NCBI GenBank assembly: GCA_000004695.1
Contig: CM000150.2
Coordinates: 3,072,001-3,136,000 of the forward strand
Direction: 5' to 3'
DNA: 64,000 nucleotides
DNA from: Dictyostelium discoideum
Taxonomy: Eukaryota
Position numbers and translations under genes: made by a program. Of the stretch, positions 951-11,467 are shown one piece after another; positions within the stretch are counted from its first letter, which is position 1, and each line of letters begins with the position of its first letter. A model generated the notes under the pieces. It was not told the DNA's origin and made no database searches. It saw nothing but the letters and a program-made list of their open reading frames with translations.

Positions 951-2455
951 AGGCAAATAGTAATGGTGGTGGAAGTAGTAATTCATTTTTAGATTTGAAA
1001 AAAGAAGGAAATAGTTCAAATGGTGGCGAAAAAGTATTTGTTACAATCGGACAACATAAACTTGATTTAAAAATGAAAAGTGCTAGAACTTCAAATATTC
1101 CAGATTTACAAGATATATCAATTGAGCATCAACCACCACCTCCACCTTGTCCATATGATCATTTAGTTTTAGTTGTCCATGGTATTGGTAAAGTAAGTTA
1201 ATATAATTTTAATTTTAATTTATATTAATATAATTTTATTTTTATTTTTTTATTTTTTATTAATTTTTTTTTTTTTTTTTAACAATAATAGCATGATTCA
1301 GGATATTTTGAAATGATTGAAAAATTAAATAAAAAATTTGATAAAATGTTTGCATATGGTAGTAATTGTGGTATGAAAAGAGTTAAATTTATTGCAATTG
1401 AATGGCATTCAGTTATTAGAGAAGATTTAGGTACAATTATACAAGATGTAACACCAGCATCAACACATGCAAAATCATTACCAAAAGCAATTAGAGCAGC
1501 AATTGATGATAGTTTTATGGATTATGTTTTATTTAATGATTTTGAATTTTCAAAGAAAATCTATACCGAAGTTACAGATCAATTAAATAATCAATATATG
1601 GAATTCTTAAAAACTTATCCAGCATTCGATGGAAAAGTATCATTATATTCCCACAGTTTAGGTTCACTCATTTGTTATGACATTTTAACTAATCAACCAA
1701 CCGATGCATTATGTCAATCAGATGATCAAAGACAATTTGTAAAAGATGGTGATAGTAATATAGCAAGTTGGAAAAAATTTAGAGCATCTCAATTACATCA
1801 AGAGAAATTACAACATTTGGATGTAAATCCAATAAAAAGAGAATTCAAACATCCACATAGCTCAACTTTCTTACCATTGGTTTTTCAAACTTATAATTTA
1901 TTTACAACTGGTTCTCCAATTGGTATAATTTGTGGTTTACGTCGTTATAATCATTTTCCAATTCCTTCAGTTATTAATTGGTTTAACATTTACAATATTT
2001 GTGATCCAGTAGCTTATTTAATTGAACCATTAATTGATAAATCTTTTAAACAACTTCCAACTTATTTCCTCCCAAAATTTAGAACTGGTTCAAAAAAAAA
2101 AAGTAATAATAATGGTGATTCCTCTTCAGAAGATGAGTTGGAAAGTTTATTTATAAATAAAAGAGCTTCTTCAACTTTAACTGATGAGGTTAATGGTAAT
2201 AATTATAATAGTAATAATAGTAATGTAGATCAACCACCACCACAACAACAACAACAACAATCTCAACAATCTCAACAACAACCACAAAATCCAGACTCTT
2301 CAAAAGATGAAAAACCATTTTCAAACTATAGATTCGATTATGCAATTAAACCTACTGGTATTCATATTTCTGAATATTCACCTTTATTAACTGCTCATTC
2401 TGATTATTGGATGGCCGGTAATGTTTTATATTTCATCGGTAATAGTTTAAAATAA
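947..2455 (+). CDS. DDHD-domain phospholipase A1-like / serine-lipase protein (2 exons: 947..1192, 1292..2455; intron 1193..1291 GTAAGT..AG)
   Basis: Exon 1 ends ...LVLVVHGIGK followed by GTAAGT. Exon 2 is in phase after ..aataatAG and continues HDSGYFEMIEKL... A GxSxG lipase motif (LYSHSLGSL) and a DDHD-type motif (ICDPVAYLIEP) are present. C-terminal YRFDYA...LTAHSDYW is typical of the DDHD domain. Poly-Q/N linker from CAA/AAT repeats. Confidence 0.6.
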
Positions 2456-2691: not shown

Positions 2692-3105
2692 TTATCCAAA
2701 ACAAAAAAATCTTTTAAAAAAGGATTGTTTTTTAAAATCATTTCCATCATTTTGATCTAAAGAAATTATTGAATATCCATCCTTTTCAATATAATCAGCT
2801 TCATTTAAATCTTCATCTTTTGGTGACTCTAATTCCAGAATCTGATCTCTTTCCAATATTTTTAATTTTTCAGTTTCTTTTTCATTTTTATTATTTTCAT
2901 TTTTAATTTCATTTTCATCATCCACTATAATTGATGAAACTAATACCTCTTGTTTAAAATGAGTTTCTTGATTGGATATTATTACTGATTTATTATTAGA
3001 ATTTGTGAATATTACTTGATTAGCTAAAGGGATTTCATTTATATCATTTTCTTTATTTTTAAAATTATTGTTTTTATTATTTTTTTTTTTTAATTCCATT
3101 TTCAT
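2692..3105 (-). CDS. Small hypothetical protein (137 aa), partial paralogue of the N-terminal region of the Cu-ATPase at 6895..11055
   Basis: ORF contains IPLANQVIFTNSNNKSVIISNQ and GYSIISLDQNDGNDFKKQSF. The ATPase N-terminus has IPLFNQVIFTNSYNNSKVVLDDNQ and GSIVSLDMDSLNSAIIMEPNFQKDY. Two collinear matching blocks make a chance low-complexity match unlikely. Confidence 0.35.
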   Translation of the reverse strand: MKMELKKKNNKNNNFKNKENDINEIPLANQVIFTNSNNKSVIISNQETHFKQEVLVSSIIVDDENEIKNENNKNEKETEKLKILERDQILELESPKDEDLNEADYIEKDGYSIISLDQNDGNDFKKQSFFKRFFCFG

Positions 3106-3217: not shown

Positions 3218-3248
<31 letters not shown>

Positions 3249-3848
3249 GTCCAAAATTAAATATAACTTTAAAAAAAATTATAACCCTTGTTTTTGATTA
3301 AATGTGACCACGTTGCACCTGTTTAATTATTTCGTTTTTTTTTTTTTTTTTTATTTTTTCAAGATTTCGTCATTTTTATTTTTTTAATCTAAAAAAACTA
3401 ATCGAAAAAAATAATTTCATTCTTTTTTTAATATTAATAAATTCTATTAATAAATTTTATTTTAGAAAAATATAATAATATAAATATTACTAAAATAGTT
3501 TTATTTTAATTTTTAATTTTTATTTCTTAATAGGTTTTGTTTTAATTTTATTTTCTTTTATTTATTTTTTTTTTTTTTTTTAATTATTTTTTATTATATA
3601 GTTGTTTAATTATTTTTAAAATTTTTTTTACATTTTTTTACTTAATTTAAATCTAGAAAAATAAAAAAGAAAATAAAAATCAAGAATTATGATTGTTTTT
3701 TTTTGTGTTTAAATTCTATGAATTATTTTCATAAAAAAATCTTTTTTTTTTTTTAAATTTTTATGACCCTCATAATTTTTTTTTATTTTTTTTTTTATTT
3801 TTTTTTTCCAACCAAATATAATAAATACAACTACATATACAATTAAAG

Positions 3849-3930
3849 ATGATGGAAGAAGAAGAAGATAATGAGTTAGATTTAAGTATACCAGTATGTT
3901 ATTAATTTATTAATTGATTCATTAATTGAT

Positions 3931-3981
<51 letters not shown>

Positions 3982-5228
3982 GGACTAATTTTTTTTTTTT
4001 TTTAAAAAAAAAGGTAAAATCATTATTAGAGGATATCTCATGTCCAATTTGTTTAAATTTTATAGAAGAATGCTCAACACTTAGTTGTGGTCACAATTTT
4101 TGTCACAAATGTGTTTCAGAATGTATAAATAGAAATCATAAATGTCCATTATGTAATAAAACAGCACTAAAAGAGAATATATATAGAAATCATCAATTTG
4201 AAAAAATTATAAAAATTATACGTATAGAAAAAGAAAAATCAAAAACTATTTATTATGATAATTTAATTTCTGGTGCATCAAATGGAAAAATAACAACAAC
4301 AACAACAACAAATAATAATAATAATAATAATAATAATAATTCAAATGATAAATTATTAAATATTAATGAAGATAATTCAAATTCATCACCAGTTGAACAA
4401 TTATTTAAAAAATATTTAAAATCATCATTAATTTCATTTGAAAGTCATTATCAAGATTTATCAAAACCCTATAATGATAATGTAAAGAAAATCAATTCTA
4501 AAATGCAAGAGAATATTGATAGAGTTAGTGCTAATACCAACACAGCATCAATGAGTGAAATATTAATTGACCAAATTAGAAAAGAGTATCAAATTAAACA
4601 AGATAAATTAAAAGAAGATTTTAAAATCTCAACCAATTATTTATTATCATCATTGGAAGATTATTTAAAGAAAGCGGCAGTACCACCATCATTTATCAAT
4701 ATTTATACAAGTATTATGATACCTGAACGTGATATAATATTTGATCATTGTTCATTTAAACCAACATCATGTCTATCGGATATTCGTGCAACTCTAGTTG
4801 AGAAACTTAATAATCGTGGTGACAAATTTCAATTCATTTCATTCAATGACGATTCTCATTTCGTAGCTTTAAAACCCACAAGTATGTTAATCGATGGTAG
4901 TGATAGTAATGAAATTAAACTAATCGATGAATTGAAACCACTTTACTTTTATCAAATTCCTCAAGGTTCAAAGATACAATTACGTGGTGGCATTCAATTA
5001 AAAGGTGATATACCAAAAGAATGTTTCAAAAAACTCTTTGTACCAGATCAAAATATGACTATGGATTATTATCGTTGTGAAGATTGTAAAGTAAATTGGA
5101 TTTGTAAAAATTGTTCAGAATTTTGTCATAAAGGTCATAAAATAGTTAGTTACATTTTAAATCATAAACCAGCTTATGGATGTTGTTATGATGAAAAATT
5201 TAAATGTTGTAAATTAATAAATAAATAA
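3849..5228 (+). CDS. RING-finger (C3HC4) protein, probable E3 ubiquitin ligase, with a C-terminal Cys/His-rich zinc-finger-like motif (2 exons: 3849..3893, 4014..5228)
   Basis: Exon 1 is ATG ATG GAA... (MMEEEEDNELDLSIP) followed by GTATGT at 3894. The acceptor is ..aaaaaaaaAG at 4012-4013. Exon 2 starts VKSLLEDISCPICLNFIEECSTLSCGHNFCHKCVSECINRNHKCPLCNK, a canonical RING. The frame is open to the stop at 5226-5228. The C-terminus has CEDCKVNWICKNCSEFCHKGHKIV. There is no internal Met before 4503, so exon 1 is needed for a start. Confidence 0.6.
3935..3980. repeat. (ATTT)n microsatellite inside the RING-gene intron
   Basis: atttatttatttattt... about 11 units, immediately before the region containing the acceptor. 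Confidence 0.8.
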
Positions 5229-5285: not shown

Positions 5286-6470
5286 TTATAATTTTGAAAT
5301 TGGTTTATATGAACAATTTTCAATAATTGTTGCAGTTGCTTGACCAAAACCAATACACATTGTTTGAAGTGCGTATTTTTTATTTGATCTTTCTAATTCA
5401 TTTACCATTTTAGTCATAAGAATACAACCAGTTGCACCTAATGGATGACCATGTGCGATTGCACCACCATTTGGATTAATTTTATCTAAATCAATATTTA
5501 ATTCCTTTTTCCAACCTAAAACTACAGATGCAAAGGCTTCATTAATTTCATATAGATCAATTTGATCTTTAGTGAGACCACTCTTTTCCAATGCTTTAAT
5601 AGTTGCTGGAATTGGACCTAATAGCATATATTCTGGATCAGAGCCAACTACTGTACAAGTTACAATACGAGCACGTGGTTTTAATCCTAATTTCTTAACT
5701 AAACGACCACTAACCAATAGGACAGCAGAAGCACCATCGCTGATTTGTGAAGCATTTGCAGCACTAATCTTACCATTTGGCTTGAATGGGGTTTTTAAAG
5801 TTGACATTTTCTTATAATCTACTGGAACACGAATACCTTCATCTTTATCAACAACTTTACCATCTTGAAGGGTGACTGGGATGATTTGGTCTTTGAAATA
5901 GCCTTTCTTTGTTGCGTTATCTGCTAATTCGTGAGATCTACCAGAGAATTTATCGATTTCATCTCTTGTTAAATTATATTTCTCTGCAATCATTTCAGAG
6001 GAAACACCTTGATGAAGTACTTTGAAATTAAAACCTTCTACAAATTTAGGATTATCTAATTGCCAATCACTGCCCATTGGTACTATACTCATCATTTCTA
6101 CACCACAGCCAATAACAATATCCATATCACCTGATCTAATTGCTTGCGAGCCAAAATGGATAGCTTGTTGACCTGATCCACACATTCTATTTAATTGAAC
6201 ACCTGGCACATTGATTGGTAATCCGGCTTTTAATGCTGCAAATCTTGCTATGTTTGCACCTTGTTCTCTTAATGGTGATACAACACCACAAATAACATCT
6301 TCAACTAATCCTCTATCAACATTTGGATTTCTTTTCATTAATTGGTCCAGTGTATATGATAATAAATCAATTGGTTGTATTGAATGTAATGATCCATTAC
6401 TATATCCTCTACCAATTGGTGTACGAATACAATCAACTATATAAACTTCATTTGTTGTTGTTGTAGTCAT
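5286..6470 (-). CDS. Thiolase (acetyl-CoA acetyltransferase / 3-ketoacyl-CoA thiolase) with C-terminal -SKL (PTS1-like)
   Basis: Uninterrupted 394-aa ORF, ATG at 6470..6468. Thiolase signatures are NRMCGSGQQAI (active-site Cys), NGGAIAHGHPLGATG and CIGFGQATATII. The C-terminus is ...YKPISKL. Confidence 0.9.
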   Translation of the reverse strand: MTTTTTNEVYIVDCIRTPIGRGYSNGSLHSIQPIDLLSYTLDQLMKRNPNVDRGLVEDVICGVVSPLREQGANIARFAALKAGLPINVPGVQLNRMCGSGQQAIHFGSQAIRSGDMDIVIGCGVEMMSIVPMGSDWQLDNPKFVEGFNFKVLHQGVSSEMIAEKYNLTRDEIDKFSGRSHELADNATKKGYFKDQIIPVTLQDGKVVDKDEGIRVPVDYKKMSTLKTPFKPNGKISAANASQISDGASAVLLVSGRLVKKLGLKPRARIVTCTVVGSDPEYMLLGPIPATIKALEKSGLTKDQIDLYEINEAFASVVLGWKKELNIDLDKINPNGGAIAHGHPLGATGCILMTKMVNELERSNKKYALQTMCIGFGQATATIIENCSYKPISKL

Positions 6471-6894: not shown

Positions 6895-9800
6895 TTAATT
6901 CTTATTTTGATATTTATAGTTATTTAAAGTTAAAGAAAATAAAACTACTGGTAGTGAAGATAATAATTCAGATAAACCGGCCAAAGCAGGTGGAATTGTA
7001 AACCATGGATATAAAATACCACTTGAAAGAGGAATACCTAAAAGATTATAGATGAATGCCCAAAATAAATTAAATTTAATAGTTTTGAAAATTGATTTTG
7101 ATAAATCAAAACAAACCAAAATATCATTTAAATCATTTTTTAGTAATATAACACTTGATGATTCAATTGCAATATCTGTACCATTTGAAATTGAAATACC
7201 AATATCTGATTGAACCAAAGCTAATGAATCATTTACACCATCACCAACCATTACAACAATTGATTTATTTTTACCATTATTACTATTATTATCACTGCCA
7301 CTACAACCAACACTGGCACCATTAAAACCATCACCACCATCAGTACCACAACAATTATCTTCAGTTGTATTATAACCTTGTAATTTTCTAACGATATTGA
7401 ATTTATCAATTGGTAATGCTGAACCAATAATATTACCCGAATTAATATTTAATTGTTCACCAATTGATTGAGTTGCTCTTTTATTATCACCACTAACTAA
7501 CCAAACATCAATACCATTATTTTTTAATTTTGAAATTACTTTTTTTGCTTCTGGTTTCAATTTATCAGATAATGAAACTAATCCAATAATTTTCTCATTC
7601 ATTGATACTAAAATTACTGTTTTCCCTTGATTCTCTAATTTATCAATATCATTTTGAATCACTGAATTAATTATAACTTCCTTTGATTGACTTTTTGATA
7701 GTTGTGATGATGACGAAGAGCAACAACCTTTCTTACAATCACTACCATTGCTAATAGAAGTTGGTGGTGGTGCTGGACAACAACCTTTCTTACAATCACT
7801 GCTATTGCTAATAGAAGTTGGTGGTGGTGGTGGTAATGATGGACAACAACCTTTCTTACAATCACTACCATTGCCAGTAGAAATTGGTGGTGCTGCTGCT
7901 GCTGGACAACAACCTTTCTTACATTCACTGCCATTGCTAATAGAAGTTGGTGGTGGTGGTGGTGGTGGTAATGATAGACAACAACCTTTCTTACAATCAT
8001 CAGATTTTGAATTAATTAATTGACTTGATTGTAATGGTGATTGACAAGAATCAATTTTATTATTATTATTTGATAATTGTTCAACAATAAAAGATTGATT
8101 ACCAACCATAATTTTATTATTATTAATAAAAGAAATAATACCTTTTCCAGGATGAACTTCACTATTTGTTGGTTCTTGTAGTGCTTTTTCTAAAGTGAAT
8201 TGTTGAATTGCATATTGTTTAATTGATTTACCAATTAAATGTTCACTTGATAATTCAGCGGATGCAGTATAGAAAAAGAATTGTTTTGGTGAAATTGATT
8301 GATCATATATTGAGAAATGATTTATATCGATTTCACCAGTTGTTAAAGTACCAGTTTTATCAAATATGACCTTGTTGACTTTACTTGCCAATTCAATTAC
8401 TTGACCACCACCTTTGAATAGAATACCAAATTTCTTTGCACCAATTGCACTACCAACCATAATTGATGTTGGCGTTGCTAATGAGATCGCACAAGGACAT
8501 GAAATTACCATTAATGACATACTAATTTTAATTGCAAAAGTGAATGCTGATTGATTATCAGTGGCAATGACAACATTATAGTGAATTAAACAAAACCAAA
8601 CTATAAATGTAATTATTGAGCATATTAATATGGTTGGTACGAAATAAGATGCAACTAAATCTGCATAGTTTTGAAAGTTTGGTTTAATTGATTGACTCTC
8701 TTCAACCAATTTAATAATATTTGATAATGCTGTATCATTTGAATGTTTTGTAACTTTAATAATTAAACAACCCTTTTGATTCATTGTTCCACCAAAAACG
8801 TAATCATCAATTCTCTTATAGACATGATTTGCTTCACCAGTTATAATTGATTCATCAATATATCCACCATTACCTCTAATTATAATACCATCAGTTGGAA
8901 TCTTTGTAAATGGTAATACTTTTAAAATATCACCTTTTTCAATTAACTCTTTTTCAATCATTATTTCTTGTTCACTACCTACATCTTTATTATTATTATT
9001 TGATAATAGAATTGCATTTGATGAATCTAATTGTTTCATTTTTTCGACTAATACATTTGATGCTTTTGATTTTGCTAAGTGTTCTAAATATCTACCAAGA
9101 ATAATTAATGTTAAAAGTATAACACAAGTTTCAAAGAAAATTGGACCATTATAATTCAATGAGGAGAAATGATTTAAAATTAAATTAATTAGAGAATAAA
9201 AGTAAGCAATCGTACTACTTGTCATAACTAATAAATCCATACTACATTTTCTTGCATAAATCAAAGTTTTCCAAGCTGAAATATACAATGGTTTACCACA
9301 ATAAAATTGAATTGGTGTTGCAAATGATAATAATAATAAAATTGACATTGTAATACCTTTACCAATTTCAAATTCCATAACTTCTTTAACTGATTTAATA
9401 TTTGGAAAAATATATGAAATTAAAATTGTTGGTATAAATAATAAAATACAAAACATTAATAATGATTTTAAGTTATTATTATTATTATCTTTTGAATTAT
9501 TATTCTTATTATTGGAATTATTATTATTATTTAATTTTGTATTTGGTTGAATTTTAAAATTATCACCAAATATAAGTTGGATTTCTTTTAATAGATTACG
9601 TGGTCCAATTTTATCAGTATCATAAACAATTGTAAGTTTATCATTAACCGAACCAGATTCTTCGATAGCATCTAAAACACCATCAATTGATAATTTAATA
9701 TTTTCAATTAATTGATCATTTAATATTGTTGTTAATGTTGAAGTTGGTGATAATGATATGATTTCAATTGTAATTTGATTTGAATTTGATGATTGACCAT

Positions 9801-11055
9801 GAACTTGTTTACCAACAAATCCAATATTTTCAATAACTTGTAAGATTTGTTGTGGTTGTATAATCATTGGTGAATAATTAATCTTACATTTACCAGTGAA
9901 TAAACTAGTTTGAATTTCATTTACACCTGATAATGATTTCATTTTTTGTTCTAATGTAGTTACACAATCTGCACATGTCATACCTGAAATCATTAAATGT
10001 AATTCAACTTTTTCTAATGATTTTGATAATGTTGATGATTGAGATGATTTTATACCTGTTGAATTTTTAAAATTATTTGTTGTTGTTATTGGTAATAATT
10101 CAATTGATACATTATTATTTGTGGATAATCCTTTATTATCCCTTTCTTCTTGTTGTTCAATATCCACCTTATCTTCATTCAATTCACTATAGCCAACTTT
10201 AAATCCAAATGTTCCACAAGTTTTAGAAAACATTGTTGCAAAGATACGTTTCTTTCTTTGTTGATCACTATTGTAATCATTGTTATTGTCATCTGATGAT
10301 GAGGATGAACGCATAAAACTAAAGTTTGGTACTCCTACACTATAAGTTAAACAACAAACTTGTTTACAACAATCAACTTTACAGCAATGGCCTGTTACAC
10401 AAATGTTGCAACAGTATGTTTTGGTTGATTCTACTTGTTGTTTTGGTTGTTCAGTTGGACAACATCCCTTTTTACAACCAATATCATTGGTTTCAGTTGT
10501 TTTTGATGATGATGAGCAACATCCTTTTTTGCAACTACCTTTATCATCCTTGGTGATCATTTTTTCATCATCGGATGGAGTTGGACAACAACCTTTCTTA
10601 CAATTGTCATTGGATGTAGTTGTTGTAGTTGTTGTAGTTGTTGTTGTTACCACTGGTGAAGAAATGGTATAATCTTTTTGAAAGTTTGGCTCCATAATGA
10701 TGGCACTGTTTAAACTATCCATATCCAATGAAACAATTGACCCAACATTAGAATTTGATTTGTAATTTTTAGGAACACCATCATCATCATCTTCTTCTTC
10801 ATCCTCGTCTTTGTCCCTATCTTCATCATTGTTTGTTAATAATGATTTCTTTTCACCACAACATCCCTTTTCGCATTGTTTTTTTGTTTGTAATGTTGGT
10901 GGTGGTGATGGTGGTGTGATGAAAATTATATCATCTTGGTTATCATCTAAAACTACTTTTGAGTTATTATAACTATTGGTGAAGATAACTTGATTAAATA
11001 ATGGGATACCTTCATCATAATCATAATTATCATCTTCTCCTTTAAAGTCTCCCAT
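6895..11055 (-). CDS. P1B-type heavy-metal (copper)-transporting P-type ATPase with one HMA domain and multiple CxxGCC Cys-rich repeats
   Basis: Continuous ORF. The probable true start is MGDFKGEDD (ATG at 11055..11053; the upstream part of the ORF is poly-Lys from poly-A). HMA motif GMTCADCV (about 9965-9990). TM6 CPC (ISCPCAISLATP, about 8490). DKTGTLT (about 8345-8370). SEHLIG (SEHP-like N-domain motif). GDGVNDSLAL (about 7235-7250). N-terminal CEKGCC/CKKGCC x4 and an internal tandem CKKGCC-Pro-rich insert x5. Confidence 0.9.
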   Translation of the reverse strand: MGDFKGEDDNYDYDEGIPLFNQVIFTNSYNNSKVVLDDNQDDIIFITPPSPPPTLQTKKQCEKGCCGEKKSLLTNNDEDRDKDEDEEEDDDDGVPKNYKSNSNVGSIVSLDMDSLNSAIIMEPNFQKDYTISSPVVTTTTTTTTTTTSNDNCKKGCCPTPSDDEKMITKDDKGSCKKGCCSSSSKTTETNDIGCKKGCCPTEQPKQQVESTKTYCCNICVTGHCCKVDCCKQVCCLTYSVGVPNFSFMRSSSSSDDNNNDYNSDQQRKKRIFATMFSKTCGTFGFKVGYSELNEDKVDIEQQEERDNKGLSTNNNVSIELLPITTTNNFKNSTGIKSSQSSTLSKSLEKVELHLMISGMTCADCVTTLEQKMKSLSGVNEIQTSLFTGKCKINYSPMIIQPQQILQVIENIGFVGKQVHGQSSNSNQITIEIISLSPTSTLTTILNDQLIENIKLSIDGVLDAIEESGSVNDKLTIVYDTDKIGPRNLLKEIQLIFGDNFKIQPNTKLNNNNNSNNKNNNSKDNNNNNLKSLLMFCILLFIPTILISYIFPNIKSVKEVMEFEIGKGITMSILLLLSFATPIQFYCGKPLYISAWKTLIYARKCSMDLLVMTSSTIAYFYSLINLILNHFSSLNYNGPIFFETCVILLTLIILGRYLEHLAKSKASNVLVEKMKQLDSSNAILLSNNNNKDVGSEQEIMIEKELIEKGDILKVLPFTKIPTDGIIIRGNGGYIDESIITGEANHVYKRIDDYVFGGTMNQKGCLIIKVTKHSNDTALSNIIKLVEESQSIKPNFQNYADLVASYFVPTILICSIITFIVWFCLIHYNVVIATDNQSAFTFAIKISMSLMVISCPCAISLATPTSIMVGSAIGAKKFGILFKGGGQVIELASKVNKVIFDKTGTLTTGEIDINHFSIYDQSISPKQFFFYTASAELSSEHLIGKSIKQYAIQQFTLEKALQEPTNSEVHPGKGIISFINNNKIMVGNQSFIVEQLSNNNNKIDSCQSPLQSSQLINSKSDDCKKGCCLSLPPPPPPPTSISNGSECKKGCCPAAAAPPISTGNGSDCKKGCCPSLPPPPPTSISNSSDCKKGCCPAPPPTSISNGSDCKKGCCSSSSSQLSKSQSKEVIINSVIQNDIDKLENQGKTVILVSMNEKIIGLVSLSDKLKPEAKKVISKLKNNGIDVWLVSGDNKRATQSIGEQLNINSGNIIGSALPIDKFNIVRKLQGYNTTEDNCCGTDGGDGFNGASVGCSGSDNNSNNGKNKSIVVMVGDGVNDSLALVQSDIGISISNGTDIAIESSSVILLKNDLNDILVCFDLSKSIFKTIKFNLFWAFIYNLLGIPLSSGILYPWFTIPPALAGLSELLSSLPVVLFSLTLNNYKYQNKN
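7724..7995. repeat. Tandem coding repeat, 5 units of 57-72 bp (each encodes D/E-CKKGCC-P/A-rich-TSISNGS) within the ATPase CDS
   Basis: Repeated block caacaacctttcttacaatcactgccattgctaatagaagttggtggtgg... seen 5 times on the + strand. It translates on the minus strand to the CKKGCC...PPPP...TSISNGSD units. Confidence 0.85.
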
Positions 11056-11467
11056 TTTTTTTTTTTTTTTTTTTCTATTTCTATAAAAAAAAAAAAGTAT
11101 ACTTTTTTCTTTTTCTTTTTCTTTCTTTTTTTTTTTTTTTTTTCTTTTTTTTTTTAACACAGAACACTGATTATTATGGAGTCGATTTCTTTAATAATAA
11201 AAAAAAAAATAATAATAAAAAAAAAAAAGAAATTTTTAATCAAAAAATCTGAATTTTCCAAAAAAAAAAAAAATAAAATTTTTATGCGTTTATATTTAGT
11301 TTTTATTTTTAGTTGTGCCACGTTGGGAATTGCTTCTTTTTGGTGGTTATTTAATTATTTAAAAAAAAAAAAAAAAAAAAAAAACAATATTACAAATATA
11401 AAAGAATAATTGAAGTTATATTATAAAATAAATAGATATTAAATATCAAAAAAAAAAAAACCTAAAT

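Follow-up and report, generated by a model that had tools for sequence, protein, structure and literature searches.

Phospholamban, sarcolipin, FXYD, yeast Pmp1/2 and PacL, all small proteins associated with P-type ATPases, are single-pass transmembrane (TM) peptides that are unrelated in sequence to the pumps. Mycobacterial PacL is a small P-type ATPase regulator that is encoded near the pump gene (PMC13043812). MicroProteins are small paralogues that act via a retained interaction element of a larger relative, examples being LITTLE ZIPPER, miP1a/b and the Id proteins (PMC5381583, PMC7584889). At the N-terminus of the human copper pump ATP7B, residues 1–63 and the nine-residue motif F37AFDNVGYE45 are reported to determine copper-dependent sorting (PMC3308323, citing Braiterman et al., 2009). 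Here we analysed a 64,000-nucleotide window of Dictyostelium discoideum AX4 chromosome 1 (positions 3,072,001 to 3,136,000 of the 4.92 Mb contig CM000150.2; ~22% GC), in which the 137-residue open reading frame (ORF) DDB_G0269586 shares two short motifs with the N-terminal tail of the P1B-type Cu-ATPase atp3. The first-pass annotation of this sequence had placed the small ORF on the same strand as the ATPase and 8 kb away from it, which the ORF scan bears out. We are confident that DDB_G0269586 is a real gene homologous to the atp3 tail, and the distribution of the two sequences among species suggests that it was probably derived from the atp3 5′ end by partial duplication, as a copy of the part that encodes the first ~110 residues.

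DDB_G0269586 resembles a microProtein in its size (137 aa, where the criterion is ~20 kDa or less), in its kinship to part of multi-domain atp3 without the functional domains of the latter, in its probable origin by partial duplication and in its proposed engagement of its ancestor's partners. It differs in that it retains a pair of linear motifs without a confident fold rather than a folded interaction or dimerisation domain, in that the ancestor is a membrane transporter and not a transcription factor, and in that it bears a novel C-terminal tail. Like phospholamban, sarcolipin, FXYD, Pmp1/2 and PacL, it may be dedicated to one P-type ATPase, and its gene, like that of PacL, lies near the pump gene; unlike them, it has no TM helix and appears to be a paralogue of the pump's own cytosolic tail. 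Block 1 of atp3, the first of the two shared motifs, also lies at the extreme N-terminus upstream of metal-binding units, as the ATP7B peptide does. There is no demonstrable homology between the two, the atp3 sequence IPL[FAI]NQVIFT being only loosely F-[DN]-[NQ]-V-x-[YF]-like by eye, and the atp3 tail contained no FAFDNVGYE-like sequence and gave no PDB or profile match. The ATP7B peptide may thus be viewed as a positional and functional analogue of atp3 block 1, not as a demonstrable homologue, and we know of no free-standing paralogue of it. On the evidence assembled here, DDB_G0269586 would be a young, lineage-restricted partial-duplication gene and a microProtein-like partial paralogue.

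The kinship is plainest in block 1. Residues 25–43 of the small protein (IPLANQVIFTNSNNKSVII, 2977–3033) are identical to ATPase residues 17–35 (IPLFNQVIFTNSYNNSKVV, 10951–11007) at 13 of 19 positions, with a composition-adjusted BLASTP E value of 2e-5, and a profile–profile comparison of six small proteins with four ATPase tails (hhalign) matches 19 columns with a probability of 94% and E=1.1e-7. When both blocks are chained in a gapped local alignment, the score is 115, whereas shuffling the small protein gives 61.7 ± 9.1 and not one shuffle (0/2000) scored as high; the comparison with shuffled controls that the first-pass annotation had proposed thus comes out in favour of similarity. The segment IPL.[ND]QVIFTN is unchanged in all six small-protein sequences despite synonymous codon changes, and the ATPase version (EGIPLFNQVIFT) is kept in the D. 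firmibasis and D. citrinum orthologues. Between the small ORF and atp3 of AX4, 7 of the 33 nucleotides of block 1 differ, four of them at synonymous third positions, which argues that the duplication is old and maintained by selection in both copies rather than the product of recent conversion. Judged from these alignments, block 1 (IPLxNQVIFTNS) is clearly homologous between the small protein and the atp3 tail.

Block 2 is much shorter, the match of SIISLD (2755–2772) to SIVSLD (10723–10740) spanning only six columns. When block 1 is removed from both alignments, block 2 is still the best local profile match, with E=0.033 and an equal score in 1 of 300 column shuffles. Its position is the convincing feature, since the distance from the start of block 1 to the start of block 2 is 87, 80, 91 and 83 residues in four small proteins and 89, 80, 87 and 80 residues in four ATPase tails. 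DGYSI[IV]SLD is unchanged across the small-protein orthologues, and block 2 of the pump (DGVPK.Y....GSIVS[LI]DMD) is kept in D. firmibasis and D. citrinum and is conserved in D. dimigraforme, whose partial atp3 locus covers block 2 only. The two collinear blocks claimed by the first-pass annotation are therefore upheld, but the F[QK]K that it appended to block 2 is not conserved among the ATPase orthologues. It had also described the small ORF as a paralogue of the N-terminal ~150 residues of the ATPase; this holds for ~27 recognisable residues within a ~100-residue span, the linker having diverged past recognition, and does not hold for the ~150 residues as a whole.

Resemblance by chance or composition between two low-complexity, AT-rich-encoded sequences has some points in its favour: both proteins are rich in N, D, E and K, Dictyostelium codon bias inflates similarity, and block 2 amounts to six residues that do not stand out by their own E value. 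The composition-adjusted and profile statistics and the shuffles given above speak against it, as does the restriction of both motifs to the small ORF and atp3 in a six-frame scan of the window, and both are kept in the orthologues of the two families at equal spacing. We regard this explanation as effectively refuted by the controls. Two further similarities did fall to the same kind of control. A third collinear block, pairing KKQSFFKRFF of the small protein with RKKRIFATMFSKTCGTFGF of atp3 (the fourth BLASTP high-scoring segment pair), was rejected because 64 of 200 profile shuffles match or beat it, and the similarity of the small-protein tail to RKKRIFATMF of atp3 was not significant; an internal repeat in the small protein (SVIISNQETHFKQE versus SIISLDQNDGNDFKKQ) was rejected with 14 of 150 shuffles as good.

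The ORF corresponds exactly to XP_646093 / Q55DN8 ('hypothetical protein DDB_G0269586', AX4). A word-indexed search returned five cluster representatives from other assemblies, namely a D. discoideum isolate (96% identity), D. cf. discoideum, D. citrinum, D. dimigraforme and D. firmibasis (60–65%), and the first of these clusters also takes in the protein of AX4 and that of a third isolate of D. discoideum. We compared three orthologous loci, those of D. firmibasis, D. citrinum and D. dimigraforme. In all three the order ATPase–thiolase–RING/B-box–small ORF–DDHD is kept, and the small ORF is an intact single exon of 125–138 codons that ends at the same stop (orthologue proteins 125–139 aa). 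Pairwise Nei–Gojobori ratios of non-synonymous to synonymous divergence (dN/dS) are 0.23–0.47, with dS up to 0.71, and the excess of synonymous over non-synonymous change is significant (Fisher p 0.03 to 4e-7); synonymous differences such as ATC/ATT, GTA/GTG and GGA/GGC/GGG occur within the invariant blocks themselves. Of the codons in the intergenic DNA on either side, 8.3% are stops, at which rate 137 open codons would arise by chance with p ~7e-6. The ORF has a GC content of 20% where its flanks have 11–12%, and by codon position its GC is 0.35 at position 1, as in atp3, and 0.10 at position 3. By these measures DDB_G0269586 is a real coding sequence under purifying selection.

A decaying or never-functional relic, whose apparent conservation merely reflects the close relatedness of the species, would fit the background-level RNA-seq counts over 67 samples, the lack of a domain or confident structure, the fast divergence (65% identity to D. 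firmibasis) and the low-complexity, N/K/E-rich composition of the protein. It would not easily fit a frame that has stayed open in every genome at dS up to 0.6–0.7 with all length differences in frame, a dN/dS significantly below 1, or conservation that is focused in discrete blocks bearing synonymous changes. With the stop-codon frequency of the flanks, neutral survival of 125–139 open codons in several lineages is very unlikely, and a conserved upstream element, described below, has been kept as well. We therefore consider a relic unlikely.

Conservation in the small protein falls in short segments. Those that are invariant are IPL.[ND]QVIFTN, HFKQE, VSSII, ILEL, DGYSI[IV]SLD and, the most striking, the C-terminal 13 residues KKQSFFK[RK]FFCFG. 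Identity to D. firmibasis is 65% for the small protein and 62% for residues 1–135 of the atp3 tail, and to D. citrinum 77% for each; in the same comparisons identity is 96–97% for the thiolase and 83–88% for the part of the pump that starts with the HMA domain. On these figures the small protein and the atp3 tail evolve at equal rates, and the pattern is that of a poorly structured protein constrained at short motifs.

Among three assemblies labelled D. discoideum, the 137-residue protein shows ~6 substitutions and a 3-residue indel (96% identity; P0001 and P0007, P0007 being 134 aa), all of them outside the conserved blocks. This seems a high level of variation within a species, and it suggests either fast linker evolution or cryptic species among the isolates.

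The tail motif of atp3 is present in the D. purpureum ATPase, and a profile search of 5.8 billion proteins, in a database that includes D. purpureum proteins, found the small protein only in the clade of D. discoideum, D. citrinum, D. dimigraforme and D. firmibasis. In D. purpureum, the 24 kb that surround atp3 are not syntenic and likewise contained no homologue of the small ORF. Because the motif reaches D. purpureum in the pump and the small ORF is limited to one clade, a partial duplication of the atp3 5′ end is favoured. Of the partial gene duplication proposed by the first-pass annotation, then, the homology is sound, and the direction, from ATPase to small ORF, is the favoured one on this distribution but is not proven. 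If it is correct, the locus would represent a clean, datable gene birth by partial duplication, with the copy 8 kb from its parent, the motifs kept, the linker erased and a new C-terminus recruited from AT-rich sequence.

The reverse course would be that an older free-standing small gene gave atp3 its tail by exon capture or fusion. An exhaustive phmmer search of atp3 residues 1–135 against 1.84 billion representative proteins returned its own cluster and D. purpureum XP_003290625, and its two other matches were repeat or low-complexity proteins. At this sensitivity the atp3 tail would be specific to group-4 Dictyostelium and not common to atp1 or atp2, a restricted distribution that speaks for capture. 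A word-indexed search of 5.8 billion proteins with residues 1–136 gave no match, not even atp3 itself, and negatives from such low-complexity queries call for caution. Short ORFs are easily missed by annotation, which makes their absence from the D. purpureum proteins weak evidence against capture. Yet the tail is found in the D. purpureum ATPase while the annotated proteome has no small-protein homologue, none lies within the 24 kb around the pump gene, and an internal repeat in the atp3 tail suggests local elaboration within the pump. Capture by the pump is, on balance, improbable.

That repeat joins the segment following block 1 to block 2. Repeats A and B of the atp3 tail match each other in hhalign (four tails) with E=5.8e-4, a value reached by 1 of 150 shuffles, and the repeat is plain in the D. 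purpureum tail (VVLDDDQDDILYIQP / VTLDLDQEDIVFIQAEP, within DEGIPLVNHVIFTSNLGNRVVLDDDQDDILYIQP ... GSKVTLDLDQEDIVFIQAEP). This supports reading block 2 as a repeat, internal to the tail, of the strand-plus-acidic segment after block 1. The annotated D. purpureum atp3 is N-terminally truncated, and an upstream in-frame Met (MSNPNDQPYPYK...) adds 32 residues.

The first-pass annotation had viewed the small protein as a retained N-terminal module, and in the sense of a domain this view was not supported: AlphaFold2 run on the six-sequence alignment gave a mean predicted local distance difference test (pLDDT) score of 41, with mostly coil and one short helix, and what persists of the pump is two short linear motifs. 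The model, of low confidence and built from a shallow alignment, also has a marginal hairpin over block 1 (strands 30–34 and 40–44). The corresponding prediction for atp3 residues 1–420, from a single sequence, was uninformative (pLDDT 34). A Pfam search of the small protein gave no match, and a PDB sequence search returned no match to the atp3 tail and, with the small protein, only a compositionally biased one to PrsA (E=0.004). The small protein is low-complexity and N/K/E-rich, and the model suggests that it is probably disordered. It has no TM segment, the maximum Kyte–Doolittle 19-residue mean being 0.5 and the longest unbroken hydrophobic run four residues. Nor is it a metal-binding or ATPase fragment, having no HMA match, no CxxC, C.KGCC or CKKGCC and a single Cys (C135), in agreement with the earlier remark that it lacks the Cys motifs of the pump.

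Its charge is unevenly distributed: the protein is net −10 outside the tail, and the last 15 residues carry +3 together with six Phe and the only Cys. Since the comparison of this third segment with atp3 was not above chance, the C-terminal tail would be a novelty relative to the pump. In its basic and aromatic residues and single Cys at the end of an acidic protein it is reminiscent of the MARCKS effector domain and of polybasic tails with an acylated Cys, from which it differs in being much shorter, in being only a predicted anchor and in having its Cys at −3, with no CaaX prenylation site. By inspection, patterns resembling SUMO-interacting motifs (SIMs), in which a run of three to four V/I/L residues has acidic residues or Ser beside it, occur in the small protein (IISLDQND, IIVDDENE) and in atp3 (VVLDDNQDD, IVSLDMDS). 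SIM-type motifs bind by beta-strand addition, and such strand-plus-acidic patterns are common in D/E/N-rich Dictyostelium proteins; we take the resemblance as a lead only.

By analogy with microProteins, we propose that DDB_G0269586 may act as a mimic of the atp3 tail. The small protein keeps the IPLxNQVIFT and SI[IV]SLD-acidic motifs of the cytosolic tail, both of beta-strand type, at their presumably ancestral ~85-residue spacing. Neither the Cys-rich repeats for metal binding nor the HMA domain nor the pump would have survived in it, and KKQSFFK[RK]FFCFG would be a gain. This C-terminal tail would tether it to the cytosolic face of a membrane by electrostatic attraction and aromatic insertion, possibly with S-acylation, and the two motifs, displayed at the membrane as the pump displays them, would bind the partner that the atp3 tail binds, candidates for which are a factor for sorting or retention and one of the pump's own cytosolic domains. 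In so doing the small protein could compete with or modulate the trafficking or regulation of atp3 in the manner of a microProtein or decoy. We further suppose that its expression is conditional, since there is next to no transcript of the gene during axenic growth and development. We put the probability of this tail-mimic mechanism at roughly 0.3. A review reports that atp3 expression rises when bacteria are ingested (PMC5758549, citing Hao et al., 2016, and the source of the gene name atp3), and in its account the pump is implicated in copper handling during phagocytosis of bacteria. A more specific version, in which a conditionally expressed, membrane-tethered mimic of an atp3 sorting peptide titrates a partner or docks on the pump and so controls Cu-ATPase delivery to phagosomes or the plasma membrane when cells feed on bacteria or are under metal stress, is speculative and would have to be called unlikely as it stands.

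If a common partner does exist, IPLxNQVIFT and SI[IV]SLD-acidic would mark the signal by which the copper pump is sorted or regulated, and the small protein would be a natural competitor reagent for probing the signal in the atp3 tail. The microProtein concept would then take in membrane transporters besides transcription factors, and linear motifs besides folded domains. On the more specific version, DDB_G0269586 would be the first microProtein known to regulate a P-type ATPase as a 'tail mimic' and would point to a sorting signal of a protist copper pump.

Common ancestry with the atp3 5′ end does not require a common function, and the small protein might work in a pathway unrelated to the copper pump, with the strand-plus-acidic motifs as generic docking sites for another partner. 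Its most conserved element, the C-terminal tail, is new and unrelated to atp3, the invariant segments HFKQE, VSSII and ILEL are without counterpart in the ATPase, the two genes have strongly differing expression profiles, and atp3 mirrors the upstream element of the small ORF only weakly. On the other hand, while the linker was erased, each family retained both motifs and the distance between them, for which a common partner or geometry is the simplest explanation, and the two genes are linked within 8 kb in four species. An independent function is accordingly possible but doubtful.

Several observations weigh against the tail-mimic reading. One is transcription: in the raw-count tables of Rosengarten et al., 2015 (PMC4403905), DDB_G0269586 has 0–1 uniquely mapped reads per sample in 38 filter-development samples and 0–7 in 29 suspension samples, where atp3 has 10–104 and 62–657, respectively, and it falls under the 30-read filter and is not among the 8,040 expressed genes of that study. 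The gene ID was not found in the supplementary text of Singh 2017, Schilde 2016, Lamrabet 2020 and Hanna 2019, among them studies of bacterial exposure and M. marinum infection whose tables may be truncated or confined to differentially expressed genes. The first-pass annotation had held that a lack of transcription would count against its proposal, and 0–7 raw reads per sample come close to such a lack. DDB_G0269586 is essentially silent in AX4 axenic growth and development, and this silence set beside the signature of selection is the main tension in the data, one that may be relieved if expression is conditional (on bacterial prey, metal stress, the sexual cycle or wild strains). With such near-silence in standard laboratory conditions, the importance of the gene may be small or limited to particular conditions. 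The other points concern the protein and its history. Only ~27 residues are recognisably common to the two proteins, and block 2 on its own is weak. Because the helical moment of the tail is low (0.22, not a clean amphipathic helix) and its Cys at −3 (...FFCFG) does not form a CaaX box, in which the Cys is at −4, the tail as a peripheral membrane anchor is a conjecture. The absence of the small ORF from D. purpureum rests only on annotated proteins and one 24 kb locus, for which reason neither the direction nor the date of the duplication is proven.

A conserved non-coding element of ~75 bp lies upstream of the small ORF. It occurs at −194 to −215 in four of four species with an ACGT core, GC[AT]ACGTGGT[CT][AT]CA...AAAGGTTAT...AAAGTTATATTTA[AT]TTTTGGA, at ~9786 and ~9804 in loci L001 and L002 and at ~10004 in L003 (D. 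dimigraforme), and it stands amid unalignable AT-rich intergenic DNA that is common to the divergent RING/B-box gene. In AX4 it is non-coding, being followed by an in-frame stop, and it is probably a promoter or 5′ untranslated region element; a reading as non-coding RNA was set aside, with no Rfam match at E≤1. The element also accounts for a two-exon model of the D. dimigraforme protein P0004 (L003:10001–10575), which begins MQRGFNLITAKGYKVIFIFGQKK and whose first 'exon' is the conserved upstream element. The AX4 counterpart of this 'exon' is closed by the in-frame stop, and the true D. dimigraforme ORF is a single exon of 125 aa that starts from MELKKKK at L003:10198. Extension of the AX4 ORF by splicing was likewise rejected, because poly(A) comes after the conserved stop and the convergent DDHD gene has its 3′ end 237 bp away.

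The core of the element, CAACGTGG, has two matches in the 64 kb against 0.16 expected, one at 3308–3315 (−), ~205 bp upstream of the small ORF, and the other upstream of atp3. At atp3, D. citrinum has the variant AACGTTGCA, and neither D. firmibasis nor D. purpureum has a copy. A promoter element shared by both genes was set aside on the grounds that the atp3 copy is not conserved in the latter two species, and co-regulation or co-duplication of the promoter is a weak possibility.

The positions of these features and of the neighbouring genes, which follow one another in the order atp3, thiolase, RING/B-box, DDB_G0269586 and DDHD, are collected in Table 1.

Table 1. Features of the DDB_G0269586–atp3 region, in window coordinates.
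Feature	Position	Strand	Details
DDB_G0269586 coding sequence	2692..3105	−	137 aa + stop, single exon; ORF scan
Small-protein C-terminal tail	2695..2733	−	KKQSFFK[RK]FFCFG, cluster of basic and aromatic residues and a single Cys; invariant throughout the orthologues, codons changing synonymously; no atp3 counterpart
Small-protein block 2	2755..2781	−	residues 109–117, DGYSIISLD; common to atp3 tail
Small-protein block 1	2977..3042	−	residues 22–43, INEIPLANQVIFTNSNNKSVII; common to atp3 tail
Conserved non-coding element, ~75 bp	3243..3316	−	~140–210 bp upstream of small ORF ATG; GCAACGTGGTCACA...AAAGGTTAT...AAAGTTATATTTAATTTTGGAC; four-species alignment
atp3 (DDB_G0269590)	6895..11055	−	P1B-type Cu-ATPase, 1386 aa; Pfam E1-E2_ATPase, Hydrolase, HMA; putative donor or paralogue of the motifs
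atp3 tail block 2 / repeat B	10693..10755	−	residues 101–121, NSNVGSIVSLDMDSLNSAIIM; GSIVS[LI]DMD kept in orthologues
atp3 tail repeat A	10912..10974	−	residues 28–48, SYNNSKVVLDDNQDDIIFITP; apparently repeated internally as block 2
atp3 tail block 1	10951..11016	−	residues 14–35, DEGIPLFNQVIFTNSYNNSKVV; kept in firmibasis, citrinum, purpureum orthologues
CAACGTGG	11318..11325	−	~265 bp upstream of atp3 ATG; core of small ORF upstream element
DDHD-domain gene	1313-2455	+	convergent to small ORF
RING/B-box gene	~3855-5228	+	divergent to small ORF
Thiolase	5286-6470	−	between atp3 and RING/B-box gene

The atp3 ORF, with the first ATG at 11055 (MGDFKGE...), is identical to the 1386-residue database protein P0008, and it has Pfam matches to PF00122 (E=1e-41), PF00702 and PF00403, CPC at residue 853 and DKTGT at 899, as expected of a P1B ATPase. 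Its Cys motifs comprise nine C.KGCC, GMTCADC and the CPC, and block 1 precedes both the first C.KGCC (residue 61) and the HMA domain (358). The small gene was already annotated as hypothetical; the papers found by our literature search make no mention of DDB_G0269586, and its kinship with atp3 appears to be undescribed in the literature searched.

Some observations on the neighbouring sequences may be recorded here. An additional gene of 163 aa (L003:8218–9416, +), which is uncalled in D. firmibasis and D. citrinum, is annotated in D. dimigraforme between the small ORF and the RING/B-box gene. Exon 1 of the RING/B-box gene occupies ~3855–3900 (+), and its first intron, which begins GTATGTT, is largely taken up by a perfect (AAATAAAT)n-type microsatellite (~3925–3985). 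In the D. purpureum locus (GL871171.1, 12232–36324), atp3 is flanked by TOR kinase and Pex14 genes and not by NAD-binding reductase and thiolase genes. Within atp3 the C.KGCC repeats lie in two places, at residues 61–199 and in a tandem proline-rich array after DKTGT (~1021–1112; ~7770–8000, −). This internal array lies inside the cytosolic ATP-binding region, a metal-binding-like array in the catalytic loop being unusual for a P1B ATPase, and its copy number differs among species, with five copies in AX4, six in D. firmibasis, four in D. citrinum, two in D. dimigraforme and none in D. purpureum.

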